Origin: Acidimicrobiales bacterium
GTDB taxonomy: Bacteria; Actinomycetota; Acidimicrobiia; Acidimicrobiales; VFJN01
Direction: 5' to 3'
Length of the DNA stretch: 63,651 nt
Assembly (NCBI GenBank): GCA_030681555.1
Contig: JAUXRW010000038.1
Span: 1-63,651 of the forward strand
Part shown: positions 30,203 through 50,712 of the stretch, piece by piece
Numbering within the stretch: the first letter of the stretch is position 1
How the letters are laid out: every line of letters starts with the position of its first letter
Position numbers and translations under genes: made by a program
The notes under the pieces: model-generated
What the model saw: the letters and a program-made list of their open reading frames with translations, nothing else
Told to the model about the DNA's origin: nothing
The model's database searches: none

Positions 30203-31108
30203 GTGGGGTCGCATCGCGGACCGGCCGAGCTCACGGTGCACGGCGTCACGGTGCGGTTCCGGGGCCTGGTGGCCAACTCCGAGGTCGACCTCGAGGTGCC
30301 GGCGGGTTCGATCTCGGCCTTGATCGGGCCCAACGGTGCCGGCAAGACGACACTGTTCAACGTCATCAGTGGCCTGGTGGCACCATCGACGGGCCGCCTT
30401 GCGCTCGACGATACGGATATCACGTCGCTCTCCACGGTCCGGAGGGCCGAACTCGGAGTTGCTCGAACCTTTCAGAGCTTGCAGCTCGCGCCGACCCTCA
30501 CTGCCCTCGACAATGTGCTCGTCGGAGTGGCTCGGCTGGGCCGATTCGGTCGGCTCGTGAACCTGGGCCGACGCGATGCGCTGAGCTCGGCCGGGCTGCG
30601 ACGGATCTCCGCCCGCGCGCTCGAGTTCGTAGGCCTCGGCCACCGGGCCGACGACCGGGTGGAGCAGCTTCCCTTCGGCGACCGTCGTCGCGTAGAGCTC
30701 GCTCGCGCCCTGGCCGGAGCGCCCAGGTTGCTTCTGCTCGACGAGCCGGCATCGGGCTTGCCTCAGGAGGAGACGGTCGAGCTGATCGACATCCTGCGCC
30801 GTGCACGTGACGAGCTGGACCTCACCCTGCTCGTGGTCGAGCACGACATGTCGTTTGTGCGGGCACTGGCGGAGCGGGCGGTGGTGCTGGACTTCGGTTC
30901 GGTGCTGGCCTCGGGCATGACCGAGGAAGTTCTCGCCGACGAGCAGGTTGTGACCGCCTTCCTCGGAACCGGGGCCGCAGGCCAGGCCGGCGCTGCGAAC
31001 GGGGCTGTTCCGCACCTCGACGACACGGTCGAGCTACGGCCAGGTCGTCGGAAGCCCCTCGTGGCGGCGGCACCCGGTCCCGAGACCAACAGTAAGGCAG
31101 CGCGATGA
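30203..31108 (+). CDS. LivG-like ABC ATPase
   Basis: GPNGAGKT, LPFGDRR, DEPASG, EHDM. Confidence 0.93.
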   Translation: MGSHRGPAELTVHGVTVRFRGLVANSEVDLEVPAGSISALIGPNGAGKTTLFNVISGLVAPSTGRLALDDTDITSLSTVRRAELGVARTFQSLQLAPTLTALDNVLVGVARLGRFGRLVNLGRRDALSSAGLRRISARALEFVGLGHRADDRVEQLPFGDRRRVELARALAGAPRLLLLDEPASGLPQEETVELIDILRRARDELDLTLLVVEHDMSFVRALAERAVVLDFGSVLASGMTEEVLADEQVVTAFLGTGAAGQAGAANGAVPHLDDTVELRPGRRKPLVAAAPGPETNSKAAR

Positions 31109-32637
31109 CGGGAACCGGTGGCACCGGACCGCGCCGGCAGATCCGCCGACTCCTCGGCGCCCTCGCGGCGGGCCTGCTTCTCTTGGCCGTCCTGCCACCA
31201 GCGCGGGCGCAAACAGCGCCGGCCGGAGCTCGCGGGCCGGACGACTGGGACGTGTCGATCAACTCGCTGCCGGTTGCTTTCCAGACCAGCGTGCCCCCCG
31301 TTCTCCCCATCGACGTTGGCGCCGGGGTCGGCTTCGCGGGGATCGCTGGTTCCAGCCTTCCGCTCATCCTCGCAACGGTCGGGCCGGTCTACGCGCCTGT
31401 GCTCGACGCGCTCGGCCTCCTCGGCGGCACCGGCGCTCTCGCCCCGATCGCGCTGAAGCTGATTCCCAGCCTCCTCCTCGGGGGCAGCACCGTCTTCGGC
31501 CTGCCGCCGCTCCCCATCGACCCGGCGCTCCTGCCTCAGCCGCCTGCCCTCCCCCTTCCGTCTCCTGAGCTGCCGGTCGTGCAGTGCACGGCCGAGTTCC
31601 CGGGCGACCCCAGGCAGGTGACCTGCGGTGGTCCCCAACAGATCTTCCTGGGCTCACAGGTTGGAGCGTTCAGCGGTACCGCCCAGGTCGACGGTGACCC
31701 CACCGACACCGACACCATCGATGCCCGCTCGTCGGTCCGCGCGTCAGGCCTGGAACCCGATGCGGGGTCCACGCTGGCACCGGTGTCGGCCAACGTGCTG
31801 AACGCGACCTCGACCTTGAAGACGACCGGGGGCTCGATCCAAGGGGCCACATCGGTCGAGGTGGGTGGCATCGACCTTCTCGACGGCCTCGTCCATGTTG
31901 AGTCGGTACGGACGAGCATCGCTGCGTCGCTCACCGGCCGCCCGGGCGAAGCGGCGGTGAACGTGCAGCCTTGCGAGATCGCCGGTGTGAAGATTGCGGG
32001 GGTGCCGGTGACGATGAGTGCCGAGGGCCTCACCGTGGACAGGAGTACCACGCCCATTCCGATCGGGGGGTTGCTCGGTGGGGTGGCCGATCTCGTCCGT
32101 GAGCTGACCCAGCAGGGCGGCCAGTCCTTGCGTCAGCTCTCGTTCCCCGCCGACTTTGGCGTGGTCAGCATCAAGGCGCTCCCGCCGGTGGTGCCCGCCG
32201 TGGCCGAGGACGGTACGCGCATCGAGGCTCGCGCCAGCTGCCTCGAGGTGTCCTACACGATCGCCGCCAGCGCTTCGTCCATCCGAACCACGGTCGGCCA
32301 GTCGGCCCTCAGCATGTCCGCGTTCCGCGGTGACTCCGGGGGCGGACCGCCCAGCGATGGTGACGGCGGATCGGGAGGGCTCACCCTCGACGCCGCGGGC
32401 GGGATCCCGTCGCCGGAGCTCGGCAGCGCCCCCGCTCTGGTGCCGGATCTGGCTGACCTTCCCGAGGCGCCCCCGGCGGGGAGCGGGGCTCCGCCGCCCA
32501 GCGACGTGCCGGTGTTCCGGACGGTGGTCGCTCGAGCCCCCGACTGGCTCCCGGTGCTGCTGGCGGCGTTGGGTGCCGGGGTGATGAGCCTGGGCCTCGT
32601 CCGAGGTCGTCGCGCCACCTGGCGGGGAGCGGTCTGA
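31105..32637 (+). CDS. Secreted beta-rich protein with C-terminal membrane anchor (transporter accessory candidate)
   Basis: Signal PPARA-Q, beta-strand pattern, Pro/Gly linker, TM WLPVLLAALGAGVMSLGLV, basic tail. Confidence 0.78.
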   Translation: MTGTGGTGPRRQIRRLLGALAAGLLLLAVLPPARAQTAPAGARGPDDWDVSINSLPVAFQTSVPPVLPIDVGAGVGFAGIAGSSLPLILATVGPVYAPVLDALGLLGGTGALAPIALKLIPSLLLGGSTVFGLPPLPIDPALLPQPPALPLPSPELPVVQCTAEFPGDPRQVTCGGPQQIFLGSQVGAFSGTAQVDGDPTDTDTIDARSSVRASGLEPDAGSTLAPVSANVLNATSTLKTTGGSIQGATSVEVGGIDLLDGLVHVESVRTSIAASLTGRPGEAAVNVQPCEIAGVKIAGVPVTMSAEGLTVDRSTTPIPIGGLLGGVADLVRELTQQGGQSLRQLSFPADFGVVSIKALPPVVPAVAEDGTRIEARASCLEVSYTIAASASSIRTTVGQSALSMSAFRGDSGGGPPSDGDGGSGGLTLDAAGGIPSPELGSAPALVPDLADLPEAPPAGSGAPPPSDVPVFRTVVARAPDWLPVLLAALGAGVMSLGLVRGRRATWRGAV

Positions 32638-34622
32638 TGGGTAAGTACCTGGACGCTGCGGTCGTCGGCATCGCGGTGGGTGGCCCCTACTCGCTGATGG
32701 GCATCTCACTGACCCTCATGTTCCGCACAACGGGCGTGCTCTCGTTCGCGCACGCGGGGTTCGCCATGATCGCCGGGTTCACCTACGGAGAGCTGGCTGG
32801 AGCGCGCGCCTGGCCCGCTCTGGTGGCGGGCCTGGTGGCCGTGCTGCTGTCGGTGGGGGCCGCGCTGCTCACCGAGCGTCTTGCCATGCGCCCCATCGCC
32901 CGCACGGGCCCGGCCGTCAAGCTCATCGCCACCCTGGGAGTCCTGTCGGTGATCACCGGTCTGATCACCCAATTCTTCGGGGGACAACCCGACGAGACTC
33001 CGCTCGTCTTCCCGTCCGGCGTGATGCGCATCGGCGGCGCCGCCATCACCTACCAACAGCTGGGAATTCTGGCCATCACGATCGCCACTGCTCTCGGTCT
33101 CCGGGCCTTCCTGCAACGCTCGAGGTTCGGCATCGCCATCCGAGCCGTCCAGGTCAACGCCGAAGCCGCCGAGCTCCTCGGGGTGCCGATCACCAGGGTC
33201 GACCAGTTCAACTGGGCGCTGGCCGGCCTGCTCTCCGGAGTCGTCGGCGTGCTCCTCACGCCACTGATCGCAGCCACCGTCGCCACCTACCCCTTGGTGC
33301 TGGTGAAGGCCCTTGCCGGCACGCTCTTCGGCGGCCTGCTGTCGCTGCCGCTCACATTCGCGGGCGGTGTGGCGGTGGGCGTGATCGAGAGCGCGGCGAG
33401 GGTGGGTTTCTCAGTACGGGGTGCTCCCGAGGTGGCCGTGATGTTCACGGTGGCCATCCTGCTCCTGGTCCGCCGCTCGTGGGGCGACGACGACAACGCC
33501 ACGGCCGTGGCCAGCAGCGGGTCCACCGTCGGCCCGGTCCGCTTCCGGATCAACCAACAGCTCGATCGGGTGCCGTGGGTCGGGGGATCGACGAGGTCGA
33601 TCCTGCTCGTGGGCATGGCCCTCCTGATCGTCGCCGGTTCGTTCGTGGCCGCCGGGGACGAGTACTGGGGTTCGGTGGGCGCGGTGTCGCTCTTCTACGC
33701 CATCGAGGTCATCTCGATGGTCGTCCTCACGGGGTGGGGCGGGCAGGTCAGTCTCATGCACGGCGCGTACGTGGGCATCGGCACGTTCGTCACCGGCTGG
33801 CTGGTCGGGGTCCAGGACGTCCCCCTCGAGTTGGCCATCCCGATGGCAGGGCTCGTCGGCGTCGCCCTCGGGGCGATCCTCGGCCTCCCGGCGCTGCGGC
33901 TCAACGGCGTGCAGTTCGCCATCGCGTCGACGGTGTTCGCGGCGGCGGCGACGGCCTGGCTCTTCGAGCTGCCCGACCTGCCGCGCAACATGAACCGAGG
34001 AACGCTGTTCGGCATCGACCTGTTCGAGTCGAGCAACGTCTACCTGATCATGCTCGTGGTGACGGCCCTGATGCTGGCGGTGGCGGCAGCCCTCCGCCGC
34101 TCTACGTGGTGGCGCCTGCTCATCGCCGCCCGGGACGTGCCCGACGCGGTACGGCACGCCGGCCTCCGGCCGGGCCCGATCCGGATCGTGGCCTTCTCGG
34201 TGGCGAGCTTCATGGCCACCGTCGGCGGTTGCTTCTACGGCATCATCGCCACGAGCTACAGCCCATTCAACTTCTCGCTGCTCCTGTCCTTCTCGCTGCT
34301 CCTGTACGCCGTCGTGGGCGGGCTCGAGTCGTTGCTCGGCCCAGTCGTGGCGGCCATGGCCTTCGGACTGCTCCCCCAGGTGCTCCAGCAGGAGGCCGGG
34401 GCGAGCAGTAGTGCCTGGCCGATCGTCGTGTCCGGTGTCGCCGTCATCGCCCTGCTGGTCCTTCGGCCCTCTGGGGTGGCGTCGATGCTGCGGCCTCGCG
34501 GTCTGTCCGAGGGCCACCTCGACTTCGGTCGCTTCGATGCCGTCGTCAGCACCGGGTGGCAACACGAGGACGACACCTCCCCGGCAAGTAATCCGTCGCC
34601 GACCCTGGCGCCGAAGTCCTAA
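32637..34622 (+). CDS. Fused LivH-LivM ABC permease
   Basis: 661 aa; LSFAHAG and GQVSLMH permease motifs in tandem. Confidence 0.92.
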   Translation: MGKYLDAAVVGIAVGGPYSLMGISLTLMFRTTGVLSFAHAGFAMIAGFTYGELAGARAWPALVAGLVAVLLSVGAALLTERLAMRPIARTGPAVKLIATLGVLSVITGLITQFFGGQPDETPLVFPSGVMRIGGAAITYQQLGILAITIATALGLRAFLQRSRFGIAIRAVQVNAEAAELLGVPITRVDQFNWALAGLLSGVVGVLLTPLIAATVATYPLVLVKALAGTLFGGLLSLPLTFAGGVAVGVIESAARVGFSVRGAPEVAVMFTVAILLLVRRSWGDDDNATAVASSGSTVGPVRFRINQQLDRVPWVGGSTRSILLVGMALLIVAGSFVAAGDEYWGSVGAVSLFYAIEVISMVVLTGWGGQVSLMHGAYVGIGTFVTGWLVGVQDVPLELAIPMAGLVGVALGAILGLPALRLNGVQFAIASTVFAAAATAWLFELPDLPRNMNRGTLFGIDLFESSNVYLIMLVVTALMLAVAAALRRSTWWRLLIAARDVPDAVRHAGLRPGPIRIVAFSVASFMATVGGCFYGIIATSYSPFNFSLLLSFSLLLYAVVGGLESLLGPVVAAMAFGLLPQVLQQEAGASSSAWPIVVSGVAVIALLVLRPSGVASMLRPRGLSEGHLDFGRFDAVVSTGWQHEDDTSPASNPSPTLAPKS

Positions 34623-34631
34623 GGAGACACC

Positions 34632-34988
34632 ATGGCCACCACGCACCCGCTCATGGCGGAAGAGCACGAGGACGAGGTCCTCGATCGCGAGCCGGCACCG
34701 CGGCGCCGGGAGGTCGACTGGCGACAGCCGATGGCCTACGTGGCCATGGGTTTCTCCCTCCTCTCCTTCCTCGTCGGCTGGTTCCAGATCGCCAACACCG
34801 AGCAGGAGTGGGAGCAGCTCCCCTATCTCGCCTCGGCCGGTGGCGTCGGCGTCGTCGCCCTCGGGGTTGCAGTGGCGCTGCTCGTGTCGATCGAGCACAC
34901 CCGCGATCGTGAGGCGGTTGGCGAGCTGCTGAAGGAGATCCGCTCGCTGAAGCGGCGGATCGAGGCCATGGACAGCAGCACCGGGTGA
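34632..34988 (+). CDS. Small 2-TM membrane protein with QxPYLxS motif
   Basis: 118 aa; TM-EWEQLPYLASA-TM then coiled-coil; AAGGAG RBS. Confidence 0.78.
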   Translation: MATTHPLMAEEHEDEVLDREPAPRRREVDWRQPMAYVAMGFSLLSFLVGWFQIANTEQEWEQLPYLASAGGVGVVALGVAVALLVSIEHTRDREAVGELLKEIRSLKRRIEAMDSSTG

Positions 34989-35040
34989 TGACGACAGCGG
35001 CTCCGACCCCGGAGCCCCGGACGCGCAGGGAGACATCGCA

Positions 35041-36585
35041 GTGAACGGTCACCACCGCACAAGGCAGGTCGAGCGAGGCAAAGGGCTGCGGGGATGGGTG
35101 CTGGCGTTGACGATGGCGCTGCTCGCCTCCGCCTGCGGGTCGATGGTCGACAGTGCGTCCGTCCGTGCCAACGGCCCTGGTGCGGAGGGCGTGGCGTCGG
35201 ATGCCGACGGCAGCACCGACGCCGGGCTGTCGACCAACGTCGGTGATGGTGGCTCGACGCCCGGTGGCACCGCGGGAGGCAGCGCGGGCGCCGGCGGAGG
35301 CGCCGGCGGAGGCGCCGGGACAGGCACCGCGGCCGGCGGAGGCACCGGTGGGGCGGGACCCTCGGGCGCATCCGCCGGGGGTACGCCGCTCCAAGGCTTC
35401 ACCGACGACGAGATCCGCATCGGGCTGACCGCGCCCATCTCGGGCCTCTTCGGCGAGGTCATCGGCGAGGAGATCTCGGGCACGCTCGACTCCTACTTCA
35501 AGGATCTCAACGCCCGGGGTGGCATCGGTGGGCGCAAGCTGCGGCTGATCGCCTACGACGACGCCTTGGACCTCACCCAGACGCTCATCAACGTCCGGCG
35601 CCTGTGGGAGCAGGACAAGGTGGCCATGGTGCTCACCACGTTCCCGGACGGCGTGGCCGACTACGTCACCCGCAACAAGATCCCGACCTTCGTGCTGGGC
35701 TTCAGCGCCTCGGCGTTCAGCTCCGCCTACCCCACAATCTTTCCGATCCTGCAGAGCGGGGCCAGCGCCACCTACTCCTTCACCTACGGGTTGAAGGAGG
35801 CCGGCGTCCCCACCGAGGGCATGCGGGTGGGGATGCTCTACGACACGCAGATCATCGACACCCGGCCCTACCTCGACTCCGCCAAGGACGCCTGGAGCAT
35901 CGTGGGCTCCGAGGTGGTGGCCGCCGAGCCGTTCAACTTTGCCGACGGCGACTGCACGGCGCTCGTGGTGAAGATGCGCGACCTGAACATCGACTGGTGG
36001 GACTTCGAGGGGCTGGGCTGGTCGTTGTGCGTGTCGGCGGCGCAGCGCCAGAACTACGAGCCCAAGGTGGGCTGGGGCAACTGGCCGACCAACATCGGCT
36101 ATCTGGCCAAGTACGCCGGCCCCCACGTTGACGGCGTGTGGTTCATGGCTCCGGCCGACGAGAACTCGGGGTACCCCCGCCAGCGCACGCCGGAGCACCA
36201 GCGCTACCTCGAGGTGCTCAAGCGCTACCACCCTCGCCTCACCGACCCGGTGCACCTCGACTCCGTGGTCACGCAGACCTACTGGATCGTCGGCCGGGTG
36301 ATCGAGGCGGCGTCGAACGCGATCAAGGACAACCCGACGCAGGAGGGCATCATCGGCTACCTGCAGGGCATCAAGAACTTCGACACGGGGATCGCGCCTC
36401 CCATCGAGAGCTGGGCGCCGGACTGCAAGGTGGGCGTCAACACCATCTGGATCGGTGTGTGGCGGTGGAAGGACGGAGGGCCCGCCCGAGAGCCCCGTTC
36501 CGGCTACCTGTCCAACCCGTTCGCCAGGGAGCGCTACGGCCAGTGCTTCGTGACCGAGCTGGCCGACGCAGTGGTCAAGAAGTAG
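35041..36585 (+). CDS. LIV/HAAT-type ABC substrate-binding lipoprotein
   Basis: Lipobox LLASAC, Gly/Ala linker, GFTDDEIRIG, GGIGGRKLRLIAYDD. Confidence 0.9.
   Translation: MNGHHRTRQVERGKGLRGWVLALTMALLASACGSMVDSASVRANGPGAEGVASDADGSTDAGLSTNVGDGGSTPGGTAGGSAGAGGGAGGGAGTGTAAGGGTGGAGPSGASAGGTPLQGFTDDEIRIGLTAPISGLFGEVIGEEISGTLDSYFKDLNARGGIGGRKLRLIAYDDALDLTQTLINVRRLWEQDKVAMVLTTFPDGVADYVTRNKIPTFVLGFSASAFSSAYPTIFPILQSGASATYSFTYGLKEAGVPTEGMRVGMLYDTQIIDTRPYLDSAKDAWSIVGSEVVAAEPFNFADGDCTALVVKMRDLNIDWWDFEGLGWSLCVSAAQRQNYEPKVGWGNWPTNIGYLAKYAGPHVDGVWFMAPADENSGYPRQRTPEHQRYLEVLKRYHPRLTDPVHLDSVVTQTYWIVGRVIEAASNAIKDNPTQEGIIGYLQGIKNFDTGIAPPIESWAPDCKVGVNTIWIGVWRWKDGGPAREPRSGYLSNPFARERYGQCFVTELADAVVKK
35287..35320 (+). 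repeat. In-frame 12-bp tandem repeat in the SBP linker
   Basis: GGCGCCGGCGGA twice plus a partial copy, encoding GAGG repeats. Confidence 0.7.
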
Positions 36586-36646
36586 CGGCAGCCGCCGCCC
36601 GCCGAGCCAACGGGGCCCGGCGATCTGAACCAGGAGGTGTCTTTCC

Positions 36647-38614
36647 ATGGCCGAGCGCTACAGCCTGCTCCGAGCGCCGATCACGATCGGCGACTGCACG
36701 ATCCCCAATCGCATCGTCCGCACCGCCCACGCCACCGGCTTCGCCTTCGGCCTGGTCAGCGACCGCCTGATCGCCTATCACGAGGCTCGTGCCCGAGGCG
36801 GGGTGGGGCTCAACTTCCTGGAGATCGCCTCCGTGCACCAGACCTCGCCCGGGTCACTGATGGCCTGGGACGACATGGTGATCGAGGGTCTCACGACGAT
36901 CACCGACCGGATCCATGCCCACGGCTCCAAGGTGTTCCAGCAGCTGTGGCACGGCGGGGCCAACGCCAAGCCCTTCGACGGCACGCCCAGCTGGGCGCCC
37001 TCGGAGGTGCCCGAACCCACGTACAACACGATGCCCCAGGCGATGACCAAGGCGATGATCGACGAGGTGGTCGACGGGTTCGGGTCGGCCGCCAAGCGAT
37101 GCCAGACGGCGGGCATGGATGGGGTGGAGATCCACGGTGCCCACGGCTACCTGGTGGGCCAGTTCCTCAGCCCCAAGACGAACCTGCGGACCGACGACTA
37201 CGGCGGATCCCTCGACAACCGGGTGCGCTTCGCGGCCGAGGCGCTCGCGTCCATACGAGCCGCGGTAGGCCCTGGCTTCCCGGTCGGGATCCGCCTCTCG
37301 GGCACGGAGGGGATCCCCGACGGCATCCAGCCCCATGAGGCAGCAGCCACCGCCGCGATGCTCGAGGCCCAGGGCCTCGTCGACTTCGTCAACGTCTCGA
37401 TGGGCAGCTACTACGCGTTCTCGAAGTTCATCGGGGCGATGCACGAGCCGCTCGGCTACGAGCTGCCGACCAGTCGGGTCGTAACAGCCGCCGTCCGGGT
37501 TCCGCGGATCGTCACGGGGCGGATCATGGATCTCCACGACGCCGAACGGGTGATCGCGGACGGGATCGCTGATCTGGTGTCGATGGTGCGCGCCACCATC
37601 GCCGACCCCGAGATCGTGGCCAAGAGCTTCGCCGGCGAGGCCGACCGCGTCCGCCCCTGCCTCAGCTGCAACCAGGGGTGCGTCGGCGGCATCTTCGGGC
37701 CCGCCGCTTCCCTCGGTTGCGTGGTGAACCCGGACGCGGGGCACGAGCACCTCGGCATCGACCCCTACCCGGCGGCGCCGAAGACACGCAACGTGGTCGT
37801 GGTGGGCGGGGGACCAGCCGGCCTGGAAGCGGCCAGCACCGCAGCTCGCCGAGGTCACTCCGTGGTGCTGTGCGATGCGGCCGACGAGCTCGGGGGCCAG
37901 CTCCGCTGGGCCCGACGGGCGCCTCATCGCCAGGACATTGCCGCTTCCACGGACTGGCTCGTGGAGGAGTGCCGGCGACTCGGCGTCACGCTGCACACCG
38001 GGACGCTGGTAGACCTCGCGTACCTCGAGGGTCTCGAAGTCGATGCCGTGATCCTGGCCACCGGCGCCGAGCTCCGTCGCGACGGGGTCCAGGCGCAGCG
38101 CCCTGACGCCGAGGTGCCTGGCGTCAGCCTCCCCCACGTGGCCACCACCATCGACGTCCTCGGTGGGTGGACCAAGCCGGCCGAGCGGGCCGTCGTCTTC
38201 GATGATCGTGGGGACATCGGGGCGGTGTCGGTCACTGAGCACCTCCTGGCACAGGGGATGGAGGTGGTCCTGGTGACGAGCCGTGCGGAGATCGCGGCGG
38301 AGCTGGGCCCGTCACTGCAACGCGAGCCCGCCCAGCAGCGGCTCCGGTCGCACCCGCGGTTCCAGGAGCGGGTCGCGCAGGCGCTCGTGTCGGTGAGCGA
38401 CTCGAGCGTGACCATCGAGGGCCTCGACGACGCCAGGTCGGAGATACTTCCCGCAGACCTCGTGGTGCTCGACACGGGCGCTGAGCCGCGCCGCGACCTC
38501 CTCGCCGAGCTCGAGGCGGCTGGCTACGAGGTGCATCTCGCCGGCGACGCGCTGGCGGCCGAGGATCTGCAGCACGCGATGGCCAGCGCTCGGGAGGTGG
38601 CGAGGTCGGTTTGA
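36647..38614 (+). CDS. Old-yellow-enzyme Fe-S flavoprotein (2,4-dienoyl-CoA reductase / BaiCD-like family)
   Basis: GVEIHGAHGYL, NLRTDDYGGSL.NR, CLSCNQGC, VVGGGPAGLEAA. Confidence 0.92.
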   Translation: MAERYSLLRAPITIGDCTIPNRIVRTAHATGFAFGLVSDRLIAYHEARARGGVGLNFLEIASVHQTSPGSLMAWDDMVIEGLTTITDRIHAHGSKVFQQLWHGGANAKPFDGTPSWAPSEVPEPTYNTMPQAMTKAMIDEVVDGFGSAAKRCQTAGMDGVEIHGAHGYLVGQFLSPKTNLRTDDYGGSLDNRVRFAAEALASIRAAVGPGFPVGIRLSGTEGIPDGIQPHEAAATAAMLEAQGLVDFVNVSMGSYYAFSKFIGAMHEPLGYELPTSRVVTAAVRVPRIVTGRIMDLHDAERVIADGIADLVSMVRATIADPEIVAKSFAGEADRVRPCLSCNQGCVGGIFGPAASLGCVVNPDAGHEHLGIDPYPAAPKTRNVVVVGGGPAGLEAASTAARRGHSVVLCDAADELGGQLRWARRAPHRQDIAASTDWLVEECRRLGVTLHTGTLVDLAYLEGLEVDAVILATGAELRRDGVQAQRPDAEVPGVSLPHVATTIDVLGGWTKPAERAVVFDDRGDIGAVSVTEHLLAQGMEVVLVTSRAEIAAELGPSLQREPAQQRLRSHPRFQERVAQALVSVSDSSVTIEGLDDARSEILPADLVVLDTGAEPRRDLLAELEAAGYEVHLAGDALAAEDLQHAMASAREVARSV

Positions 38615-38651
38615 CTCGCCTCGACAGCGGCGCCCTCGGCCCGTTCTCAGG

Positions 38652-41627: not shown

Positions 41628-42407
41628 TTGGCAACGTTGACCCGTGTGAGCGAACCCGCCTCAAGCGAGGGCCCGCCGGCGGCATCAGGATCCTCCCGCA
41701 CCAGGGCGATCCGTCATAGCCTCATTCGGCGCCGAACGGCCGAGCACTTGCGGCGTTCGGTCGACACGTCCGCACACGTCTACTCGTCGATCGAGGTCGA
41801 CTTCGAGGCGGTCGACGCGGTGCGTCGGGTGCGGGCAGCGGACTGGAAGCAGCGGGAGGGCTTCGGGCTGTCGTACCTTCCCTTCACCGCGCGGGCGGCC
41901 GCACAAGCTATCGCGACCTTTCCGGAGGTGAACGGTACGTTCACCGCCGATGCCTTGCTGGTTCACGCCGACGTGCACCTGGGCATTGCGGTCGACCTCG
42001 ACTTCAAGGGCCTCATGGTCCCAGTGGTGCGGGATGTCACGTCCAAGAAGGTGCCCGCGATCGCACGCGAGGTGCACGAGCTCGCGAGGCGTGCTCGAGC
42101 CAAGGAGCTGGCGCGCGAGGACGTCGTCGATGGCACGTTCACCATCACGAACCCGGGGCCCTACGGCACTCTGCTCACGATGCCGATCATCAACCAGCCA
42201 CAGGTGGCCATCCTCGCCACCGACGGGGTGCGACGCCGACCCGTCGCCGTGACGGGCGCCGACGGGTCCGAGGACATCGTCGTACACCCCGTGGGAAACA
42301 TCGTGCTCACCTGGGACCATCGCGCCTTCGACGGGGCCTACGCGGCCGCGTTCCTCAACGAGATCAAAGAACGCCTCGAGACCTCTGACTGGGACTCGGA
42401 GTTCTGA
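41628..42407 (+). CDS. Stand-alone 2-oxoacid dehydrogenase E2 acyltransferase catalytic domain
   Basis: 259 aa; IRRRTAEHL, GTFTITNPG, MPIINQPQ, DHRAFDG; no lipoyl or E3-binding domain. Confidence 0.9.
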   Translation: MATLTRVSEPASSEGPPAASGSSRTRAIRHSLIRRRTAEHLRRSVDTSAHVYSSIEVDFEAVDAVRRVRAADWKQREGFGLSYLPFTARAAAQAIATFPEVNGTFTADALLVHADVHLGIAVDLDFKGLMVPVVRDVTSKKVPAIAREVHELARRARAKELAREDVVDGTFTITNPGPYGTLLTMPIINQPQVAILATDGVRRRPVAVTGADGSEDIVVHPVGNIVLTWDHRAFDGAYAAAFLNEIKERLETSDWDSEF

Positions 42408-42510
42408 GCGCCCTCAGCGAGCGCAAAGTCGCTCTGCGCGATGGACCGTGGTGAGGGCCTCGCTGGGTAACTGTGAGGGGCCACCGTTGAGGCCAACCGT
42501 GGCCTCATAA

Positions 42511-43484: not shown

Positions 43485-44071
43485 TGAGTCGGCCCGCAGC
43501 TCCCGGCCGTCGTCGAGCTCGACGCGGTCGGGTCCCACAGCGACGGCCCCGGCCGGGAACTCCTCGACGCCGAGCTTCTCGCCAGCGAGGGCCAGGGCGG
43601 CGAGCGCCTTGCGCGGGTTGACCTGGTGATCGCCGGGGACCCACAGGCCCCCTCGTGTGCCGGGCCCCAGGGCCGGTTCATGCCGGCGGACCGCCCGGCC
43701 CGACAGTCGCTCGACGTGAAGTCCGAGTTCGTCGAGGTAGCCGGCGAGGTAGTGGAGTGGAGCTCGGTCATGTCGTCGCCGTCGCGGGCGACTGCGAGGG
43801 TGCCGCACTCGACGAACCCGGGATCCGCCCCGACCTCCCGCCCCAGCTCGGCGGCGAAGCTCGGCCACCGTCGGGCCGATGCGAGGTTCAGGCCGAGCAG
43901 GGCCTCCTCCCCGTAGTGGATCTCGGTAACCGGCGCCAGCATCCCCGCGGCCACCTGCGCCGCCGCCCGCGACGGGTCGGGATCGACGAGGACGACCCGC
44001 ACTCGACGCTGTGCGAGCCGCCACGCCACGGCCCGCCCGATGATCCCGGCGCCGACGACGACGGCCCTCAC
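43485..44071 (-). pseudogene. thiO: Glycine oxidase, 5' part; frameshift near 43760 and truncated by IS5
   Basis: VVVGAGIIG, AAGMLAP; second frame LERLSGRAVRRHEPAL..GGLWVPGDHQVNPR; ends at RELRADS/IS. Confidence 0.85.
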
Positions 44072-44680
44072 GACAGCAGATCCAGGAGCTCGGCCACCGC
44101 GCCGACAGGATCGGGGGCCCCGTAGACCCCCCCCACCACCGCCACGCCCCAGGCGCCGGCGTCGAGCAGCTCAGGCACATGCTTGGCGGTCACACCGGCG
44201 ATGGCGATGACCGGCACCCCGACCGCCCGGGCGATCGTCTCCACGCCGGCCGGTCCGATCGCATCGGGAAGCCCTGTCTTGGTCGAGGTCACATACGTGG
44301 GACCCACACCCTGACGCCGGCGGCGACGGCCCGGCGGGCCGCCTGTGGGTTCCGGCAGGTGGCGCCGACTACGGCGTGGTCGCCGAGCAGGCGCCGCACC
44401 ACCGCGACCGGGAGGTCGTCGTCTCCGACGTGCACCCCGTCGGCGCCGAGGGCGAGGGCCACATCGGCACGGTCGTTGACCAGGCATGTAGCCCGGGCAT
44501 CCCGCGCTGCAGCGAGGATCTCAGCGGTGTGGGCGAGGCGGACCCGGTCGATCACGTCCTTGGTCCGGACCTGCACCAGCGGCGCACCCGCTGCGAGTAC
44601 GGCCCGGGTGGTGTCGACGACGCTCGACTCCGCCACCGGTGGGGTGACCACGTGCAATCGGGGGATGTCGGGTATCTCGG
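44068..44680 (-). pseudogene. thiE: Thiamine-phosphate synthase, frameshifted near 44315
   Basis: VQVRTK, LVNDRADVAL..GADGVHVG; other frame GVGPTYVTSTK, PVIAIAGV; no clear start codon. Confidence 0.85.
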
Positions 44681-44772
44681 GCTCCCTGCGTCGGCATGAT
44701 CCGCATCAGGTTCATACGGTCGAGGGCGGTGTCAGCCCTCCTCTCAGCCCGCTGCCGCGGACTCCCGTGTCG
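44681..44772 (-). ncRNA. TPP riboswitch (THI element)
   Basis: Minus strand GGGAG...CTGAGA...GACCGTATGAACCTGATGCGGATCATGCCGACGCAGGGAG directly upstream of thiE. Confidence 0.93.
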
Positions 44773-44974
44773 GCGCCCACCATAGCGGCACACCGCTGCC
44801 GCCGTGCCCGAAGTCCCCCACACAATCTTCGCCGTACGCGGAGGACCTCGGTGTCGTTCCAGAGGTCGTGCTCAATCCGCGCGCGAGACCCCAGACGGGC
44901 CCCCGGATCGGATGACACACCTTGATCCCAGAGGCGGACGTCCCCTTCCCGTGAACCGGAGTGAATGCCGGCGG

Positions 44975-45018
44975 TTGACACCCTATCGATGATAGGTGAT
45001 ACTCCGATCACCGATAGG
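44975..45018 (+). promoter_or_regulatory. Promoter with two tetO-like operators
   Basis: TTGACA-CCCTATCGATGATAGGT-GATACT, then CCGATC-ACC-GATAGG. Confidence 0.75.
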
Positions 45019-45034
45019 AGAAACGGAGCGACTG

Positions 45035-45517
45035 ATGGCCTTCCTGCAACAGACCCTCGACCACGACGAAGTGAGCCTGGTGATGGCGAGCACACCAGAG
45101 GTGCTCTACGACCTTCTCTCGGACGTCACCCGCATGCGCGAGTTCAGCCCCGAGGTCGTCGAGAGCCGGTGGATCGACGGGGCGACGGGCCCGGCCGTCG
45201 GCGCCCGGTTTGCGAACAAGAGCAGGTTCAGCCGGGGCCCGGCGATCGGCAACAAGGCGACGATGACCGTCCTTGAGCCCGGCAAGAAGGTGGCGTGGAG
45301 CCGGACCGAGCCGTTCGGCGGCACGGTCGAATGGGCCTACGAGCTCCTTCCGCACGCGGAGGGCGTCGAGGTCGTCGAGTCGTACTCCTTCAGCCGGCCG
45401 GTCAGCCGGATCGGCTGGCTGATCATCACCCCGTTCACCAGCCGCGACCGAGGGGCGCAGATGCACGCCGGCATGGAAGAGACCCTGCAACGGCTCCGTA
45501 GGTACGTCGAGTCCTAG
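45035..45517 (+). CDS. SRPBCC/START-like (polyketide cyclase) ligand-binding protein
   Basis: LYDLLSDVTRMREFSPE...GPAVGARF...W.Y..; 160 aa. Confidence 0.88.
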   Translation: MAFLQQTLDHDEVSLVMASTPEVLYDLLSDVTRMREFSPEVVESRWIDGATGPAVGARFANKSRFSRGPAIGNKATMTVLEPGKKVAWSRTEPFGGTVEWAYELLPHAEGVEVVESYSFSRPVSRIGWLIITPFTSRDRGAQMHAGMEETLQRLRRYVES

Positions 45518-45521
45518 TCAG

Positions 45522-46106
45522 GTGAGCACCAGCAAGGTCACGGTCCGACGAGAGGCAAAGATCGCCTCGATCGTCGCAACGGCGTGGGAGCTCGCGGAGG
45601 CGGACGGTGTCGCGGGCCTCTCCCTGCACGCGCTGGCGCGGGCGGTGGGACTGCGCCAGCCGTCTCTCTATGAGTACTTCGACTCGAAGCATGCGCTGTA
45701 CGACGAGATGTTCGCCGATGGCAACCGCCAGCTCCAGGCCCACCTTGCCGCGTTGACGTTGCCGCGGGAACCGCGGCGTGCGCTGAAGAGGTATCTGGGC
45801 GCGCTCGCTTCGTTCGCACTCGAGCGCCCGGCTCGCTACGAGCTCATGTTCCTGCGTCACCTGCCGAACTTCACGCCGTCGGACGCGTCCTACGCGATCG
45901 CTGGCGAGGTGCTCGGCACCTTCGTGGAGCGGATGACGGCCGCTGGAGTGACGAAGCCCGACGATGTCGACTGCCTGGTGGCGATGACCGCCGGGCTCAT
46001 CGATGCGCAGCTGGCAAACGAACCGAACACGGACCGGTGGATCCGCCACCTCGATCGTCTCATCGACCTCCTGGTCGACGACGCGATCCGGAGGAGTGCC
46101 CAGTGA
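45522..46106 (+). CDS. TetR/AcrR-family regulator
   Basis: LSLHALARAVGLRQPSLYEYFDSK HTH; ARYELMF. Confidence 0.92.
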   Translation: MSTSKVTVRREAKIASIVATAWELAEADGVAGLSLHALARAVGLRQPSLYEYFDSKHALYDEMFADGNRQLQAHLAALTLPREPRRALKRYLGALASFALERPARYELMFLRHLPNFTPSDASYAIAGEVLGTFVERMTAAGVTKPDDVDCLVAMTAGLIDAQLANEPNTDRWIRHLDRLIDLLVDDAIRRSAQ

Positions 46107-46249
46107 TCAACGAACCAGCGAACCCGGCGACATCCAGCGCACCGTGGCTCCTCATCGCCGGGCGGGGAGCGTCGACCATCGGTGACGGCTGTTACGCGGT
46201 GGCCTTGCCCTTGTTCGTCCTCGGTGATCACGGCAGTGCTGCGACGCTC
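46103..46249 (+). pseudogene. 5' fragment of an MFS transporter, truncated by IS debris
   Basis: GTG overlaps the tetR stop; WLLIAGRGASTIGDGCYAVALPLFVL resembles MFS TM1. Confidence 0.6.
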
Positions 46250-46254
46250 AAAAA

Positions 46255-46368
46255 AGCGCGACGATCGAGATGGTCACCGAGTTCCGCAACCGACCCCTCG
46301 ATCAAGGCCCCTACACGTATGTGTGGATAGACGCGCTCACGCAGAAGGTCCGCAAGGGCGGGAGGTAT
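46255..46368 (+). mobile_element. IS256-family transposase internal fragment
   Basis: EMVTEFRNRPLDQGPYTYVWIDALTQKVRKGGR. Confidence 0.82.
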
Positions 46369-47012
46369 GGCGGGTTCAGGCGGTGGCCGCAACGACCTGC
46401 GCGTAAGCCTCTGATGGTGTCATGTACCGAGGGTCTTGCGGGGACGGCCGTTGAGGCCGCGCTGGATGCGCTTCAGATCGGCAGCCGTCTGCTTGGAAAG
46501 GTCGGTGCCCTTGGGCAGGTATTGGCGCAGGAGCCCGTTGGTGTTCTCGTTCGAGCCGCGCTGCCAAGGCGAGTGCGGGTCGCAGAAGTAGACCGGGATC
46601 CCCGTCGCTGTCGTGAAGGTCGCGTGGGTCGACATCTCCGCTCCTTGGTCCCACGTGATCGACCGTCGCAGCTCGCCAGGCAGCGTGGCGACGGCCCGAC
46701 GCATCGCGGCCTCGACGCTCACCGCGGAGCGGCCGTCGGGGAGGTGCAGGAGCAGCACGAGCCGAGTGGTCCGCTCGACCAGGGTGCCCACAGCGCTGCG
46801 GCCACCCTCGCCCAAGATGAGGTCGCCTTCCCAGTGGCCAGGCACAGCGCGATCGGCGACCTCGGCGGGCCGTTCGGAGATGTTGACCATGTTCGGGATC
46901 CGGCCCCGGCGTTCGACGATGCCCTCCGATCCGAGTATCCGGCCCCGTCACCAGCAGCGGGTGGACCCTCCCGACTCCACGCGGAAACGACCCGTCTCCA
47001 GGAGGCGGGGTA
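46369..47012 (-). mobile_element. IS30-family remnant (3' half and right end)
   Basis: [52 protein letters not shown]; end GTTGCGGCCACCGCCTGAACCCGCC. Confidence 0.9.
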
Positions 47013-47536
47013 ACGGAGAACGTCCTCGCCCGCGTCCCAAAGGCCTCCACCGAGATGGTCGCCGCCGCGATCCGCACGATCTTCGCTCAACCCGGAGCAC
47101 GTCCGCTCCCAACTGACCGAAGTCACCACCATGCTGCAGAGCCAGTTCCCCGACGTCGCCGACATGCTCACCGACGCCGCCGACGACCTCCTCGCGTTCA
47201 CCGGCTTCCCCCAAGCCCACTGGCGCAAGATCTGGTCAACGAACCCCCTCGAACGGCTCAACGGCGAGATCAAGCGCGCACCAACGTCGTCGGCGTGTTC
47301 CCCAACGACGCCTCCGTCGCCCGGCTCGTCACCGCCGTCGTCGTCGAGACCCACGACGAATGGGCCGTCGCCGAACGCCGCTACCTCTCCGAAGAATCCA
47401 TGGCCAAGCTCTACGCGAAGCCCGAACCCGACACCATCGTCGAGGAGCCGCCCCTCGTCATCACCGCCTGAGCCACACTGTCAACGACATCGAGCTCACG
47501 CCGACGTCGAACTACACCACTCCGCGGGGCGTCATC
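47013..47536 (+). mobile_element. IS256-family remnant (3' part, two frameshifts, right end)
   Basis: NVLARVPK..MVAAAIRTIFAQP, IWSTNPLERLNGEIKR, VGVFPN, HDEW..RRYLSE; end CTACACCACTCCGCGGGGCGTCATC. Confidence 0.88.
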
Positions 47537-47688
47537 CGACTCGAAGCGCTACCGTCTTGCGCGACAGTAAGGACAAATGATAGAAATTTTTTCTCTGGAC
47601 GTCTTAAAGAAGAAGGTCGCAGACTCCCGGTCGGCGAACCCTGGGGAGAGTCGTCGACCGTGGGTCGAAACAGGAGGGGGGGGTCTCG

Positions 47689-49068
47689 ATGCGACGAACG
47701 ATGAAGGTGTTGGCCATGTTGAGCACGCTCGGTCTACTGGCCGCGTGTGCTTCCACCGTCCCGGGCGGCGCAGGTCAGAACGCGGCGCTCGCCACCCGAA
47801 ACCAAGCCACCGGCGGTCTTGGCCCGACGGCGGCAACCGGGCCCGGACAGACCTCCGGGCCCGGACAGACCTCAACCCAAGCTAGCGGCAACGACCAGAC
47901 TGCCGCAGTCGGTGACGGATCGCAGGCCGACGCGGCCGGACCTGCCCAGGCAGCCAGCGGGGACCCGATCAAGATCGGCGCGATCTTTCCAGTGGGCTCG
48001 GGTTTCGGACAGGTGCTCGACGCGAACGGGCTGATCGGCATCTCGGAGAAGTACATCGCCAAGATCAACGCGGAGGGCGGCATCAATGGCCGGCCGGTGC
48101 AACTCGTTTGGTACGACGACGGCTTCGACCCGACCAAGGGCGTCGAGCTCGTCCGCAAGCTCGTCGAACAGGACCAGGTGCTCGCGCTCGTGAACCCCAT
48201 CACGACCTTCACGATCGAAAACGCAGCGCAATATCTGGCCGACAACGGTGTGACCACGATCGCGCCTGACGGGTACCAGGCGATCTCGTACCAATCGCCG
48301 TGGATCTACCCGGTCACCAACTTCTTTGACCGGCAGGGCTACCGCATCGGCAAATACCTGAGTTGCGATCTCGGCATCAAGCGCGTCGGCGTCTGGAGCA
48401 TCGGTACCTATGACGGGTCCCGTCGCGGCGGCGATGCGATCGTGAAGGGAGTCCAGGAGTGTGGCGGCACCGTGACCGACCGCGAGGATGTGTCGATGTG
48501 GGAGGCGAATTTCACGCCGTTCATCCTGCGCATGCGCGGCTCCAACCCGGACGTCATTGCCTCATCGATGCACCCCCTCGGCGACGCCCTCATGGTCACG
48601 ACTGCCCAGGCGCAGAACTACAAGCCGCCGAAGGGGATGATGTTCCTCTCCGCCACGGCAGGTTTCAGCGCGATCGCCGAGGGCTTTGGCGACTACGGCA
48701 ACGGTTTCTACGCAGTCTCGGAGTTCGACGGCGCCTCGGTGAGCGCCGACAACCAGAAGTTCCAGGAGTTCGCTTCTTGGGCGCGCGACAACGGGTTCAA
48801 TCCGCTCGATCGGTTCCCACAACAGATGTGGGCCGGGTTGGAGATCTTCCGCACGGCCGCGACGAGCGCAGGGGCCAACCTCGACCGGGCGAGCTTCAAA
48901 GCAGCGCTCGACGCGCTGCCGGCATTCGATTTCGGCTTCGCTTGCCAACCGATCCAGTTCGGCGCAGGGCCCCACGACCCGAACCCTTGCCTGCGGGTGG
49001 TCCAGTGGGACGCGAGCGACAAGGTTTGGAACACGGTCGTCCCATTCGCTCCAGCACCGAAGCCCTGA
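47689..49068 (+). CDS. LIV/HAAT-type ABC substrate-binding lipoprotein
   Basis: Lipobox LLAAC, Thr/Gly/Gln linker, DPIKIG, GGINGRPVQLVWYDDG. Confidence 0.92.
   Translation: MRRTMKVLAMLSTLGLLAACASTVPGGAGQNAALATRNQATGGLGPTAATGPGQTSGPGQTSTQASGNDQTAAVGDGSQADAAGPAQAASGDPIKIGAIFPVGSGFGQVLDANGLIGISEKYIAKINAEGGINGRPVQLVWYDDGFDPTKGVELVRKLVEQDQVLALVNPITTFTIENAAQYLADNGVTTIAPDGYQAISYQSPWIYPVTNFFDRQGYRIGKYLSCDLGIKRVGVWSIGTYDGSRRGGDAIVKGVQECGGTVTDREDVSMWEANFTPFILRMRGSNPDVIASSMHPLGDALMVTTAQAQNYKPPKGMMFLSATAGFSAIAEGFGDYGNGFYAVSEFDGASVSADNQKFQEFASWARDNGFNPLDRFPQQMWAGLEIFRTAATSAGANLDRASFKAALDALPAFDFGFACQPIQFGAGPHDPNPCLRVVQWDASDKVWNTVVPFAPAPKP
47837..47872 (+). repeat. Exact 18-bp tandem duplication in the SBP linker
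   Basis: CCGGGCCCGGACAGACCT twice (GPGQTS repeat). Confidence 0.8.
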
Positions 49069-49071
49069 TCG

Positions 49072-50712
49072 ATGGCCGACCGCAGGCGGTACCCGGGACA
49101 CCGACGTACGCGATGGCTGCGGCAGGCGTACATCAGCGCGATTGCGTTAACCGTGCTTACAGTCGCTCTTGTGCCCTCGGTCGCGACCACGCAACGGGCC
49201 CACGCCGACGAGCCCACCGGGCAGCCGACGCCGCCCGACGCTGCATCGCTCGGCCCGACCGTCGGCGATGCTGCGGCCGTACGCGCTCGCTGGCGCCAGC
49301 TGAGCGCATCGGCCGATGCCTACGGCGTCCGAGCCGGCCAGCAGTCGGGCGTCATCAAGGTGAACCTCGCCCGCGCGTTCACTGAGGCGACCGACAGCCC
49401 GCTCAGCCACGCATTGGCATCCCCGGTCGATGTCGGCGCCGTCCAGGTGCTGCTCGGGCTCGCGCTCAACCTGCCGTTCCCGGTGTCGTCGGAGACCCTC
49501 TACCCAGCGGGTGCGACAGACCAAAGCTTCGATGACACGTCGCCCGGCGCAGCCCTCAACCCCTTGGTGCCGGTAGCGGCACGCTCGCTGTACTCGGAGG
49601 CCCACAGTCGGCCAGCGCCCTCCGCGACGGCCTACACCAGCTACGCAGGCGCCAACACCAAGGACACGAGCGACCTGCTGAAGCTCGCCTCGAACGCGGT
49701 GGTGTTGGCGAAAGGCACCGCCGAGGTCGCGCTCGGCCCGGTGGTGGGCGACGCCGCCCAAGACATCAGCTCGTTGATCGATCAGCTCTCAGTTGCGGCC
49801 GCACTGCTCGAGTCGGTGGGCGACATCGTGCAGGTCGAGAACGTCGCCTCTCGTTCTGACACCGTTGACACCGAGGACGGCAAGGTGCGCGCTGAGGCAG
49901 TCACTGAGCTGTCGGGTGTCACGATCGCCGGGGTCCTCAAGATCGACGCGATCCTCTCCCGTACCGTTGTCACGTTCGATCCGGCCCGGGGCGCCGACCC
50001 CTATGACCCTCAGCAGAGCACCTTCATCGGTGGGGCATCGGTGCTGGGCATACCAGTCAACATCGACCAAAATGGCATCAACGTCGCCGGTGCCGGCCTA
50101 GGTGTTACCCCCGTCGTCACGTCGGCGCTGTCCAGCGCGCTCTCGCAATCCGGCGTCCTCGATGTGCGCATCACCGCACCGTTGATCGTACGGGACGAAA
50201 CCACGGGCGCAGTGGACGCGACCACTGGGGCTCTTCGCATCAACTTCAACCCGCCGAAGGCGCTCAGCGATCTCGTCAACGTCCTTACCCCACTCGAGGT
50301 GGCTCTCGGCGAGACGCACGTCAAGCTCAAAGCAGTACCAGCTCCCGTAGCGCCCTCGACGCCCAGTGCAGAGGCGCCGAGCGGCGGCGGACAAGGCTCC
50401 GGGACCCGTCAACCGGTCGACTCGTCAGTGACCGCACGCCTCCCGACGACCAAGCCGGCGACCAGCATCGAAGTGACCCCGACGCGCCCATCGGCATCCA
50501 CATCGAACACAGACGCCACGTTACCGATTGGGTTCAGCGAAGTCGATGAGATCCTCCTATGGCTGCTCGTCATTTCCGGCGTCAGCTTGCTGATCTCGAT
50601 CGCTCAGCTGTGGCGATGGACGACCGAAGGCGAGACCGGCGCGACGCTCTACAGCCGTGCTGGCGCAGTTCTCGGGGAGCGCCTGGTCGCTGGCCGAACG
50701 ACACTCCAATGA
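49072..50712 (+). CDS. Secreted beta-rich protein with C-terminal membrane anchor (transporter accessory candidate)
   Basis: Signal QRAHA-D; GVTIAGVLKIDAI and IGGASVLGIPVNIDQNGINV; Pro/Ser/Thr linker; TM ILLWLLVISGVSLLISIAQLW. Confidence 0.78.
   Translation: MADRRRYPGHRRTRWLRQAYISAIALTVLTVALVPSVATTQRAHADEPTGQPTPPDAASLGPTVGDAAAVRARWRQLSASADAYGVRAGQQSGVIKVNLARAFTEATDSPLSHALASPVDVGAVQVLLGLALNLPFPVSSETLYPAGATDQSFDDTSPGAALNPLVPVAARSLYSEAHSRPAPSATAYTSYAGANTKDTSDLLKLASNAVVLAKGTAEVALGPVVGDAAQDISSLIDQLSVAAALLESVGDIVQVENVASRSDTVDTEDGKVRAEAVTELSGVTIAGVLKIDAILSRTVVTFDPARGADPYDPQQSTFIGGASVLGIPVNIDQNGINVAGAGLGVTPVVTSALSSALSQSGVLDVRITAPLIVRDETTGAVDATTGALRINFNPPKALSDLVNVLTPLEVALGETHVKLKAVPAPVAPSTPSAEAPSGGGQGSGTRQPVDSSVTARLPTTKPATSIEVTPTRPSASTSNTDATLPIGFSEVDEILLWLLVISGVSLLISIAQLWRWTTEGETGATLYSRAGAVLGERLVAGRTTLQ

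Follow-up and report, generated by a model that had tools for sequence, protein, structure and literature searches.

Importers of the Liv/HAAT type belong to the ATP-binding cassette (ABC) transporters and are five-component machines. To our knowledge, the canonical LIV-I/HAAT systems are without additional membrane subunits. Small or bitopic membrane proteins encoded together with an actinobacterial ABC importer are the Mam/Omam proteins of mycobacteria, which are thought to stabilise the complex. For R. palustris, the ligands reported for the Liv-type substrate-binding proteins (SBPs) of COG0683 are mostly aromatic, fatty and dicarboxylic acids rather than branched-chain amino acids (PMC3223731). 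The present analysis deals with the proteins P0001 and P0002, which are encoded in two Liv/HAAT operons (systems 2 and 3) on contig JAUXRW010000038.1 of an Acidimicrobiales bacterium. This contig was analysed over its full length of 63,651 nucleotides (nt) and is called the window. P0001 and P0002 are very probably homologous at the level of a superfamily, with a diverged N-terminal module. We consider it likely that they are divergent members of one superfamily of extracytoplasmic beta-sheet proteins with a C-terminal membrane anchor, each being a lineage-specific accessory of the Liv/HAAT importer of its own operon, usually together with a small protein forming a hairpin of two transmembrane helices (2-TM).

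Relationship between P0001 and P0002

Both proteins are products of open reading frames (ORFs) on the forward strand. The ORFs and the region common to both proteins are located as follows (aa, amino acids; HMM, hidden Markov model).

31105-32637 (+): ORF of P0001, putative anchored beta-sheet accessory protein of system 2, 510 aa by translation
49072-50712 (+): ORF of P0002, putative anchored beta-sheet accessory protein of system 3, 546 aa by translation
31792-32079 (+): common core on the P0001 side, aa ~230-325, with both quoted motifs (hhalign and HMM cross-matches)
49828-50100 (+): common core on the P0002 side, aa ~253-343, with both quoted motifs (hhalign and HMM cross-matches)

A preliminary description of this DNA had named the same two ORFs with the same sizes and had placed the proteins in a single uncharacterised family in spite of low overall similarity. 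The low similarity was reproduced (best BLASTP E 0.42). The motifs quoted there were found in P0001 at aa 254-268 (GGIDLLDGLVHVESV) and aa 292-311 (IAGVKIAGVPVTMSAEGLTV; nt 31864-32037 for both), and in P0002 at aa 281-294 (SGVTIAGVLKIDAI) and aa 319-338 (IGGASVLGIPVNIDQNGINV; nt 49912-50085).

Among 5.8 billion proteins, 12 relatives of P0001 with 46-86% identity were detected, and one relative of P0002, P0015, with 48% identity. The comparison of the two families by profiles, which the preliminary description had suggested, gave a significant match. With hhalign, 133 columns containing exactly the quoted motifs were aligned at 78% probability and E 1.8e-5; with a four-sequence profile on the P0002 side (P0016 and P0017 added) the values were 94.7% and 5.9e-8. 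The P0002-family HMM was also applied to the 13 real proteins of the P0001 family. Scores from 0.8 to 23.3 bits were obtained, always on residues ~230-325, and 8 of the 13 proteins scored above every one of 1281 composition-preserving window shuffles (maximum 8.2 bits, 99th percentile 3.0 bits).

Furthermore, 48 proteins were detected at E <=1e-3 when the P0002 profile was searched exhaustively against 1.84 billion representatives (hmmsearch). P0028 (E 4.7e-6), P0050, P0049, P0031 and P0057 are among them and are unambiguous members of the P0001 family, as the P0001-family HMM assigned them 354, 237, 150, 138 and 77 bits, respectively. Since the P0002 profile retrieves clear members of the other family, the two families are linked at library-wide significance.

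The predicted secondary structures are collinear as well. For the AlphaFold2 (AF2) models, the DSSP strings agreed at 77% of the hhalign-aligned columns for P0001 residues 244-410 and at 74% for residues 40-183 (shifted controls 19-52%). This structural agreement is not fully independent, as the AF2 input alignments of both proteins share 13 sequences. Between the two regions the models differ: aa 184-243 of P0001, two long hairpins, match a 57-residue helix in P0002.

It could be argued that P0001 and P0002 are unrelated secreted proteins in which a Gly/Val/Ala-rich beta-hairpin pattern arose by chance, so that the motif would reflect convergence or composition. The BLASTP comparison is not significant, both proteins are rich in Ala, Gly, Val and Pro with high HMMER bias terms, and the P0001-family HMM gives P0002 itself only 5.9 bits at a shuffle maximum of 5.7. 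Chance resemblance does not account, however, for the transitive matches joining the families at library scale, for the high hhalign probability with the enlarged profile, or for cross-scores above all shuffles with every alignment on the same region. Nor does it account for the collinear secondary structure and for the same genomic niche and partner gene of both proteins, and we regard it as extremely improbable. The single family of the preliminary description is thus retained, based on the profile-profile match, the transitive library-wide matches and the collinear secondary structure.

Translation, alignments and AF2 models gave the following modules for both proteins.

P0001 aa 1-35: putative signal peptide
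P0001 aa 45-180: conserved N-terminal module
P0001 aa 184-311: long-hairpin beta domain
P0001 aa 324-336: helix
P0001 aa 344-407: short-strand beta subdomain
P0001 aa 408-448: Gly/Pro/Asp-rich disordered stretch
P0001, C-terminal part: conserved APPPS..VFR..DW segment, transmembrane (TM) helix aa 481-505 and conserved RGRRAxWR cytoplasmic tail
P0002 aa 1-45: signal/anchor segment
P0002 aa 74-194: N-terminal beta module
P0002 aa 196-252: long helix
P0002 aa 253-338: long-hairpin beta domain
P0002 aa 346-359: helix
P0002 aa 362-423: short-strand subdomain
P0002 aa 424-490: Ser/Thr/Pro-rich disordered linker
P0002 aa 491-514: TM helix, followed by a conserved cytoplasmic helix of ~30 aa

Both proteins would share one architecture: behind a signal peptide lies a beta-rich ectodomain, whose common part is made of long antiparallel hairpins, and a low-complexity linker leads on to a single TM helix and a short conserved cytoplasmic tail. 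The AF2 models reached a predicted local distance difference test (pLDDT) value of 74.4 and a pTM of 0.69 for P0001, and 74.2 and 0.65 for P0002. The N-terminal segments are basic and hydrophobic and close with the AxA sites described before, ARA in front of Q (P0001) and AHA in front of D (P0002), where the signal would be cleaved. A C-terminal TM helix, claimed for both proteins, was found by Kyte-Doolittle windows at aa 480-500 (P0001) and aa 490-514 (P0002); the AF2 models have C-terminal helices at 482-509 and 491-519.

The Pro-rich stalk of the preliminary description corresponds to a low-complexity linker that is present in both proteins, with 14 Gly, 13 Pro, 8 Ala and 7 Asp in 63 residues (P0001, aa 408-470) and 11 Ser, 11 Thr and 10 Pro in 67 residues (P0002, aa 424-490). 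In the model of P0001, however, the chain rejoins the folded domain after the disordered residues 412-448; residues 450-475 have a pLDDT of ~87 and include a strand at 470-474. In P0001 the stalk may thus be a loop rather than a spacer. As the modelled chain re-enters the fold just before the TM helix, the domain would be placed at the membrane and not across the wall.

In the alignment of 13 members of the P0001 family the N-terminal module (aa 45-180) is extremely conserved and partly hydrophobic, with a conserved hydrophobic segment at aa 67-133. Four Cys are invariant, consistent with extracytoplasmic disulfides. Near and after the TM helix D480, W481, R500, R502 and R503 are invariant; the helix is preceded by DW.PV and followed by RGRRAxWR, with a tail of only ~10 residues. 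For the other family the TM-proximal and cytoplasmic pattern WRW..G..G..L..RAG.VLG.RL is conserved between P0002 and P0015.

The beta-rich ectodomains of both models contain antiparallel strands of 14-18 residues. In the long central strands Ser, Thr, Ala, Gly and Asp are abundant, and only the short C-terminal strands are amphipathic. With the hydropathy of alternate faces of the predicted strands as a sequence proxy, mean Kyte-Doolittle values were <=1.8 on either face, and the long hairpins are without a strongly apolar face. The only invariant positions throughout the superfamily are turn glycines, G299 and G308 in P0001 and G326 and G335 in P0002, which argues for a structural or binding role and not for a catalytic one.

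No Pfam match was detected for P0001, P0002, 48 superfamily representatives, the small partner proteins and the fused long version described below. PDB sequence searches with the family profiles gave noise only (E >=0.07), cluster names for 10 representatives were not found, and none of the 101 pattern matches of the P0001-family profile to genome contigs was confirmed. A word-index based homologue search with one of the profiles used for the PDB yielded 3 matches, the low number being ascribed to the limitation of the word index.

The comparison with choice-of-anchor families, also suggested before, proved apt, the matches being weak. NF040603 (choice-of-anchor P) matched P0001 with 22.3 bits in hmmscan and with 27.8 bits on a segment in a six-frame search, at a cut-off of 27; the match is confined to model positions 45-124 of 185 and lies on the long-hairpin core. 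At E up to 0.1, 12 of the 13 P0001-family members and 12 of the 48 P0002-profile matches were hit (best E 4.9e-7 and 1e-8). For P0002 itself no NCBIfam match was obtained, including NF040603 at E up to 1. The shared core thus appears marginally related to the choice-of-anchor P surface-protein domain; family membership is not established. The family name implies a C-terminal sorting signal of varying type (LPXTG, PEP-CTERM and others). An LPXTG-like motif is absent from both proteins, whose C-termini consist of a hydrophobic helix and, behind it, a tail that is basic or helical. The same genome encodes a bona fide choice-of-anchor P protein (C33:7330-9375, minus strand; 31.4 bits) whose stalk is rich in Thr and Ser and whose C-terminal signal, LADTG, is of the sortase type.

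Operons and conservation of the transporter association

The window is contig C3 of a metagenome-assembled genome (MAG) of 3.28 Mb with 98% completeness from a groundwater metagenome. Its G+C content is high (66-72%). RNA-seq evidence was looked for, and only DNA runs from groundwater and soil metagenomes were found.

Coupling of both genes to transporter genes, as described before, was observed: each one lies inside a Liv/HAAT operon with overlapping or abutting stop and start codons. The junctions are ATGA at 31105, TGATG at 32637 and a 3-nt gap at 49069-49071; TAGATG was also found. The further genes of both operons are listed below.

29350-30201 (+): system 2, first ABC ATPase (Liv G/F type), PF00005 ABC_tran E 2.1e-28, start codon uncertain
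30122-31108 (+): system 2, second ABC ATPase, PF00005 E 1.7e-28, stop overlapping the P0001 start
32637-34622 (+): system 2, fused LivH-LivM permease of 661 aa, PF02653 BPD_transp_2 in two stretches, E 7.7e-51, start overlapping the P0001 stop
34632-34988 (+): system 2, small 2-TM hairpin protein of 118 aa (translation), EQLPYLAS motif, C-terminal amphipathic helix, no Pfam match
35041-36585 (+): system 2, substrate-binding lipoprotein, lipobox LLASAC, PF13458 E 3.7e-33 on aa 124-463
47689-49068 (+): system 3, substrate-binding lipoprotein, lipobox LLAAC, PF13458 E 1.9e-53
50753-51199 (+): system 3, small 2-TM hairpin protein of 148 aa, RQFPYLIS motif, 74% identical to the L016 orthologue
51196-52059 (+): system 3, LivH-type permease, PF02653 E 1.1e-31
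52056-54050 (+): system 3, fusion of LivM permease and ABC ATPase, PF02653, PF00005 and PF12399
54051-54770 (+): system 3, second ABC ATPase, PF00005 E 4.3e-27

In the SBP of system 2 a tether of ~90 aa, composed of Gly, Ser, Thr and Ala, precedes the Peripla_BP_6 domain; the tether of system 3 comprises ~70 aa (Gly, Gln, Thr, Ser and Ala). Orthologues of the small protein of system 2 hold the same position in loci L012 and L011. For the small proteins of systems 2 and 3, HMMs of one type gave the other 5.6-8.9 bits at a shuffle maximum of 10.6, so that homology is not demonstrable by sequence. ORF 50746-51195 (+) is an out-of-frame shadow of the real small gene of system 3, which lies in the frame of ORF 50657-51199.

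The association with importer genes was examined in related genomes. Of 54 loci inspected in other genomes, near-duplicates of this one excluded, 52 have a family member next to Liv/HAAT ABC genes; five further Liv-adjacent cases come from this genome and its near-duplicate contigs. Adjacency was found for all 18 loci reached via the accessory in relatives, for all 7 reached via the permease alone, for 7 loci from distant representatives (8 of 9 if near-duplicate P0015 contigs are counted), for 15 of 16 from other families and classes of the phylum, and for the 4 copies in this genome. The two exceptions are the locus of P0018 and one weak match. Relatives fetched via the permease (~35% identity) carry the labels Acidimicrobiia or Actinomycetota MAG. 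Among the genomes sampled, 12 of 301 from the class and 37 of 401 from the phylum (~10%) gave profile matches; these numbers are undercounts, as only 4-5 candidates were scored per genome.

The order of the genes varies among clades, and the accessory gene is still located within the operon. A small 2-TM gene usually follows at its 3' side. Orthologous loci of P0011, P0015 and P0016 retain the same gene set. The third accessory gene of this genome (C133:5445-6995, minus strand) lies in an operon running permease, accessory, small protein, ATPase, ATPase, SBP, and the fourth (C86:8208-9785, plus strand) precedes the gene of a Liv transporter with several fused domains. The accessory diverges in step with its operon but is in every case the least conserved member (51% against 57-70%, 34% against 38-58%, 48% against 64-74% and 30% against 41-52%). 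A fused version of the ectodomain exists in three genomes of the same genus, where a polytopic membrane domain of ~400 aa is attached on the N-terminal side (L028:7393-9939, L030:3051-5777 and L041:4705-7656, all on the minus strand). This domain has 8-9 hydrophobic segments and is 41-78% conserved over its full length. Operons with the long form show no small 2-TM gene; a relation between the N-terminal domain of the long form and the small hairpin protein was not significant. Judged from these gene neighbourhoods, the superfamily quite probably represents an accessory component of HAAT importers.

Some further observations concern the partner gene and the surroundings of the operons. On contig C80 (11589-11963, plus strand) a small 2-TM gene with the motif GQIPYLLS follows two Liv-type ATPase genes and no beta accessory is nearby; hence, the hairpin protein can occur without the beta protein. 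L026 (CAZCVW010000035.1), binned as 'uncultured Burkholderiales', carries an operon of actinobacterial type with LivHM, accessory, small protein and ATPases, and this contig is probably mis-binned.

Catabolic genes are located in the neighbourhood, encoding a KstD-like flavoprotein, an old yellow enzyme (OYE)-type reductase and a Rieske oxygenase. Near the P0001-type transporter of this genome (36647-38614, plus strand) and of the P0011 genome (L012:2475-4448) a fused Oxidored_FMN and Pyr_redox_2 flavoenzyme resembling 2,4-dienoyl-CoA reductase is encoded, which is a possible clue to the substrate. Fragments of a split Mutator-family transposase lie directly upstream of system 3 (46270-47471, plus strand). 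In the orthologous loci L014 and L019 a PaaA/PaaC-like gene precedes the SBP gene, and L014 has an IclR regulator in addition. System 3 of the window may have lost contact with the catabolic genes that originally adjoined it.

Possible role of P0001 and P0002

If P0001 and P0002 are accessories of the importers, the TM helix and the conserved cytoplasmic tail would dock them to the membrane complex of permease and small hairpin protein. The ectodomain would then be situated on the outer membrane face of the cell, which is probably monoderm. There it could position or retain the long-tethered lipoprotein SBP, or it could pre-capture poorly soluble organic acids for the SBP. Such a docking or capture role is proposed only tentatively. 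Organic acids as substrate class are suggested by the neighbouring catabolic genes and, by analogy, by the R. palustris precedent. One may speculate further that the beta protein and the 2-TM hairpin are stoichiometric subunits of a new architectural class of HAAT importers in monoderm Actinomycetota, in which a variable ectodomain on the outer face and a long-tethered SBP acquire poorly soluble organic acids at or within the wall; this is conceivable and at present doubtful.

Several findings weigh against an accessory function. The association with the transporter is purely genomic, and nothing conserved in the superfamily alignment resembles a ligand-binding or catalytic site. The closest paralogue of system 3 (C50:1307-5558, plus strand; SBP E 7e-106, LivM-ATPase E 1e-182) is encoded with neither beta accessory nor hairpin gene, so that the accessory is not obligatory for this type of transporter; the SBP of this paralogue is a lipoprotein with a shorter, acidic tether of ~45 aa. 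P0018 (L048:328-1491), a distant member, lies directly upstream of an ABC-2 exporter pair (ABC_tran and ABC2_membrane/ABC_transp_aux, GldG-like) and not of a Liv importer. Finally, the choice-of-anchor P protein on contig C33 is encoded away from any transporter, and the domain itself is thus not specific for transporters.

From the preliminary description comes the proposal that the proteins are elongated beta-groove conduits, similar to LptA, AsmA or TULIP proteins, by which a hydrophobic substrate would cross the cell wall on its way to the ABC transporter. The long antiparallel strands, the ABC association, the nearby genes suggesting catabolism of hydrophobic acids, the ability of Liv-type SBPs to bind fatty acids and the hydrophobic segment of P0001 would be in agreement with it. 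The Foldseek comparison named there as a check was carried out with both AF2 models, and no Lpt, AsmA, TamB, TULIP, LolA or Mce fold was present in the top 50 PDB matches of either one. The matches were outer-membrane barrels only (porins, FadL, OmpT, CymA) with E ~5e-4, TM-scores of 0.08-0.2 and root-mean-square deviations of 14-30 A, and for P0001 the search of BFVD gave the same picture of outer-membrane-barrel look-alikes with low TM-scores. These matches are read as local similarity of long antiparallel meanders in the models, not as a shared fold. A porin identity was rejected because of the C-terminal TM anchor with its inside-positive tail and the probably monoderm host. The long strands are polar or carry small residues on either face, and a hydrophobic face conserved throughout the superfamily is absent, only turn glycines being invariant. 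Moreover, HAAT importers receive their substrate from an SBP already encoded in each operon, and the P0001 model puts the domain at the membrane instead of across the wall. The conduit was therefore not retained and is very unlikely.

Ordinary cell-surface proteins, wall-associated or adhesin-like and merely co-transcribed with the importers, would also evolve fastest in the operon when exposed, and the marginal tie to a surface-protein family, the missing conserved binding site and the paralogous transporter on C50 without accessory point in this direction. It would then be difficult to explain why the gene is kept in HAAT operons across families and classes despite rearranged gene order, why it is translationally coupled on both sides and usually paired with the small 2-TM gene, why the cytoplasmic tails are conserved, and why a fusion to a polytopic membrane domain exists in some genomes. 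We therefore regard this explanation as unlikely. A regulatory or sensing module was considered as well, in which the ectodomain senses the substrate or the state of the envelope and gates the ATPases by a signal running through the TM helix, the conserved tail and the coiled-coil tail of the small protein. The conserved cytoplasmic tails, the cytoplasmic amphipathic helix of the small partner and the paralogous system dispensing with the accessory would be compatible with such a module; on the other hand, no recognisable signalling domain was found with Pfam and NCBIfam, the tails of the P0001 family are very short, and the idea is purely speculative and has a very low probability.

The literature on choice-of-anchor proteins, on Acidimicrobiia and Liv, and on accessory subunits of HAAT importers was searched and nothing relevant to P0001 and P0002 was found. 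The association of accessory proteins with HAAT importers thus appears to be undescribed in the literature searched. New in this work are the homology of accessory families unrelated by BLAST and a marginal link to choice-of-anchor P; the tally across the phylum and the long fused form are further additions. If P0001 and P0002 are accessories of their importers, a recurrent additional pair of membrane proteins would mean that the textbook Liv/HAAT architecture does not fully describe these importers in a large part of the Actinomycetota, most of it uncultured. Their homology would unify the operon variants into one system, and the family profiles now detect the component in about a tenth of the genomes sampled from the phylum. 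As targets we offer the hairpin partner, the ectodomain and its conserved cytoplasmic tail, which could show how hydrophobic substrates are delivered to importers in monoderms with long-tethered SBPs.

Comparison with known systems

The Liv-type transporter of R. palustris with the SBPs RPA3723 and RPA3724, encoded next to pimFABCDE, is of HAAT type, its SBPs bind fatty and dicarboxylic acids, and its neighbours are catabolic genes (PMC3223731). It belongs to a proteobacterial, diderm organism, and no accessory beta or hairpin protein is described for it. A likeness to systems 2 and 3 in the substrate class is plausible by analogy.

Lpt (LptC/LptA), AsmA-like, TULIP and Mce proteins are extracytoplasmic, beta-rich and associated with ABC transporters, as are P0001 and P0002, and their cargo is hydrophobic. 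In contrast, P0001 and P0002 are without a match to these folds among the top 50 Foldseek hits and have polar long strands, a C-terminal membrane anchor and an SBP in the operon. The proteins of the choice-of-anchor P family (NF040603) are secreted and anchored like the P0001/P0002 group. Here a plain TM helix, continued by a conserved cytoplasmic tail, serves as the anchor in place of a sortase- or PEP-CTERM-type signal; furthermore, P0001 and P0002 have extra N- and C-terminal beta modules and are encoded in ABC importer operons. For Mam/Omam no sequence relationship to P0001 and P0002 was detected, the transporter is Mce and not HAAT, and the fold is different, so that the similarity is one of analogy only.

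The closest system is LIV-I/HAAT itself (E. coli LivJ/K-LivH-LivM-LivG-LivF; TC 3.A.1.4). Systems 2 and 3 possess the full canonical set with a Peripla_BP_6 SBP, BPD_transp_2 permeases and two ABC ATPases. In contrast to LIV-I, they have fused permeases (H-M or M-ATPase) and lipoprotein SBPs with flexible tethers of 70-90 aa, and an anchored beta protein and a 2-TM hairpin protein are added.

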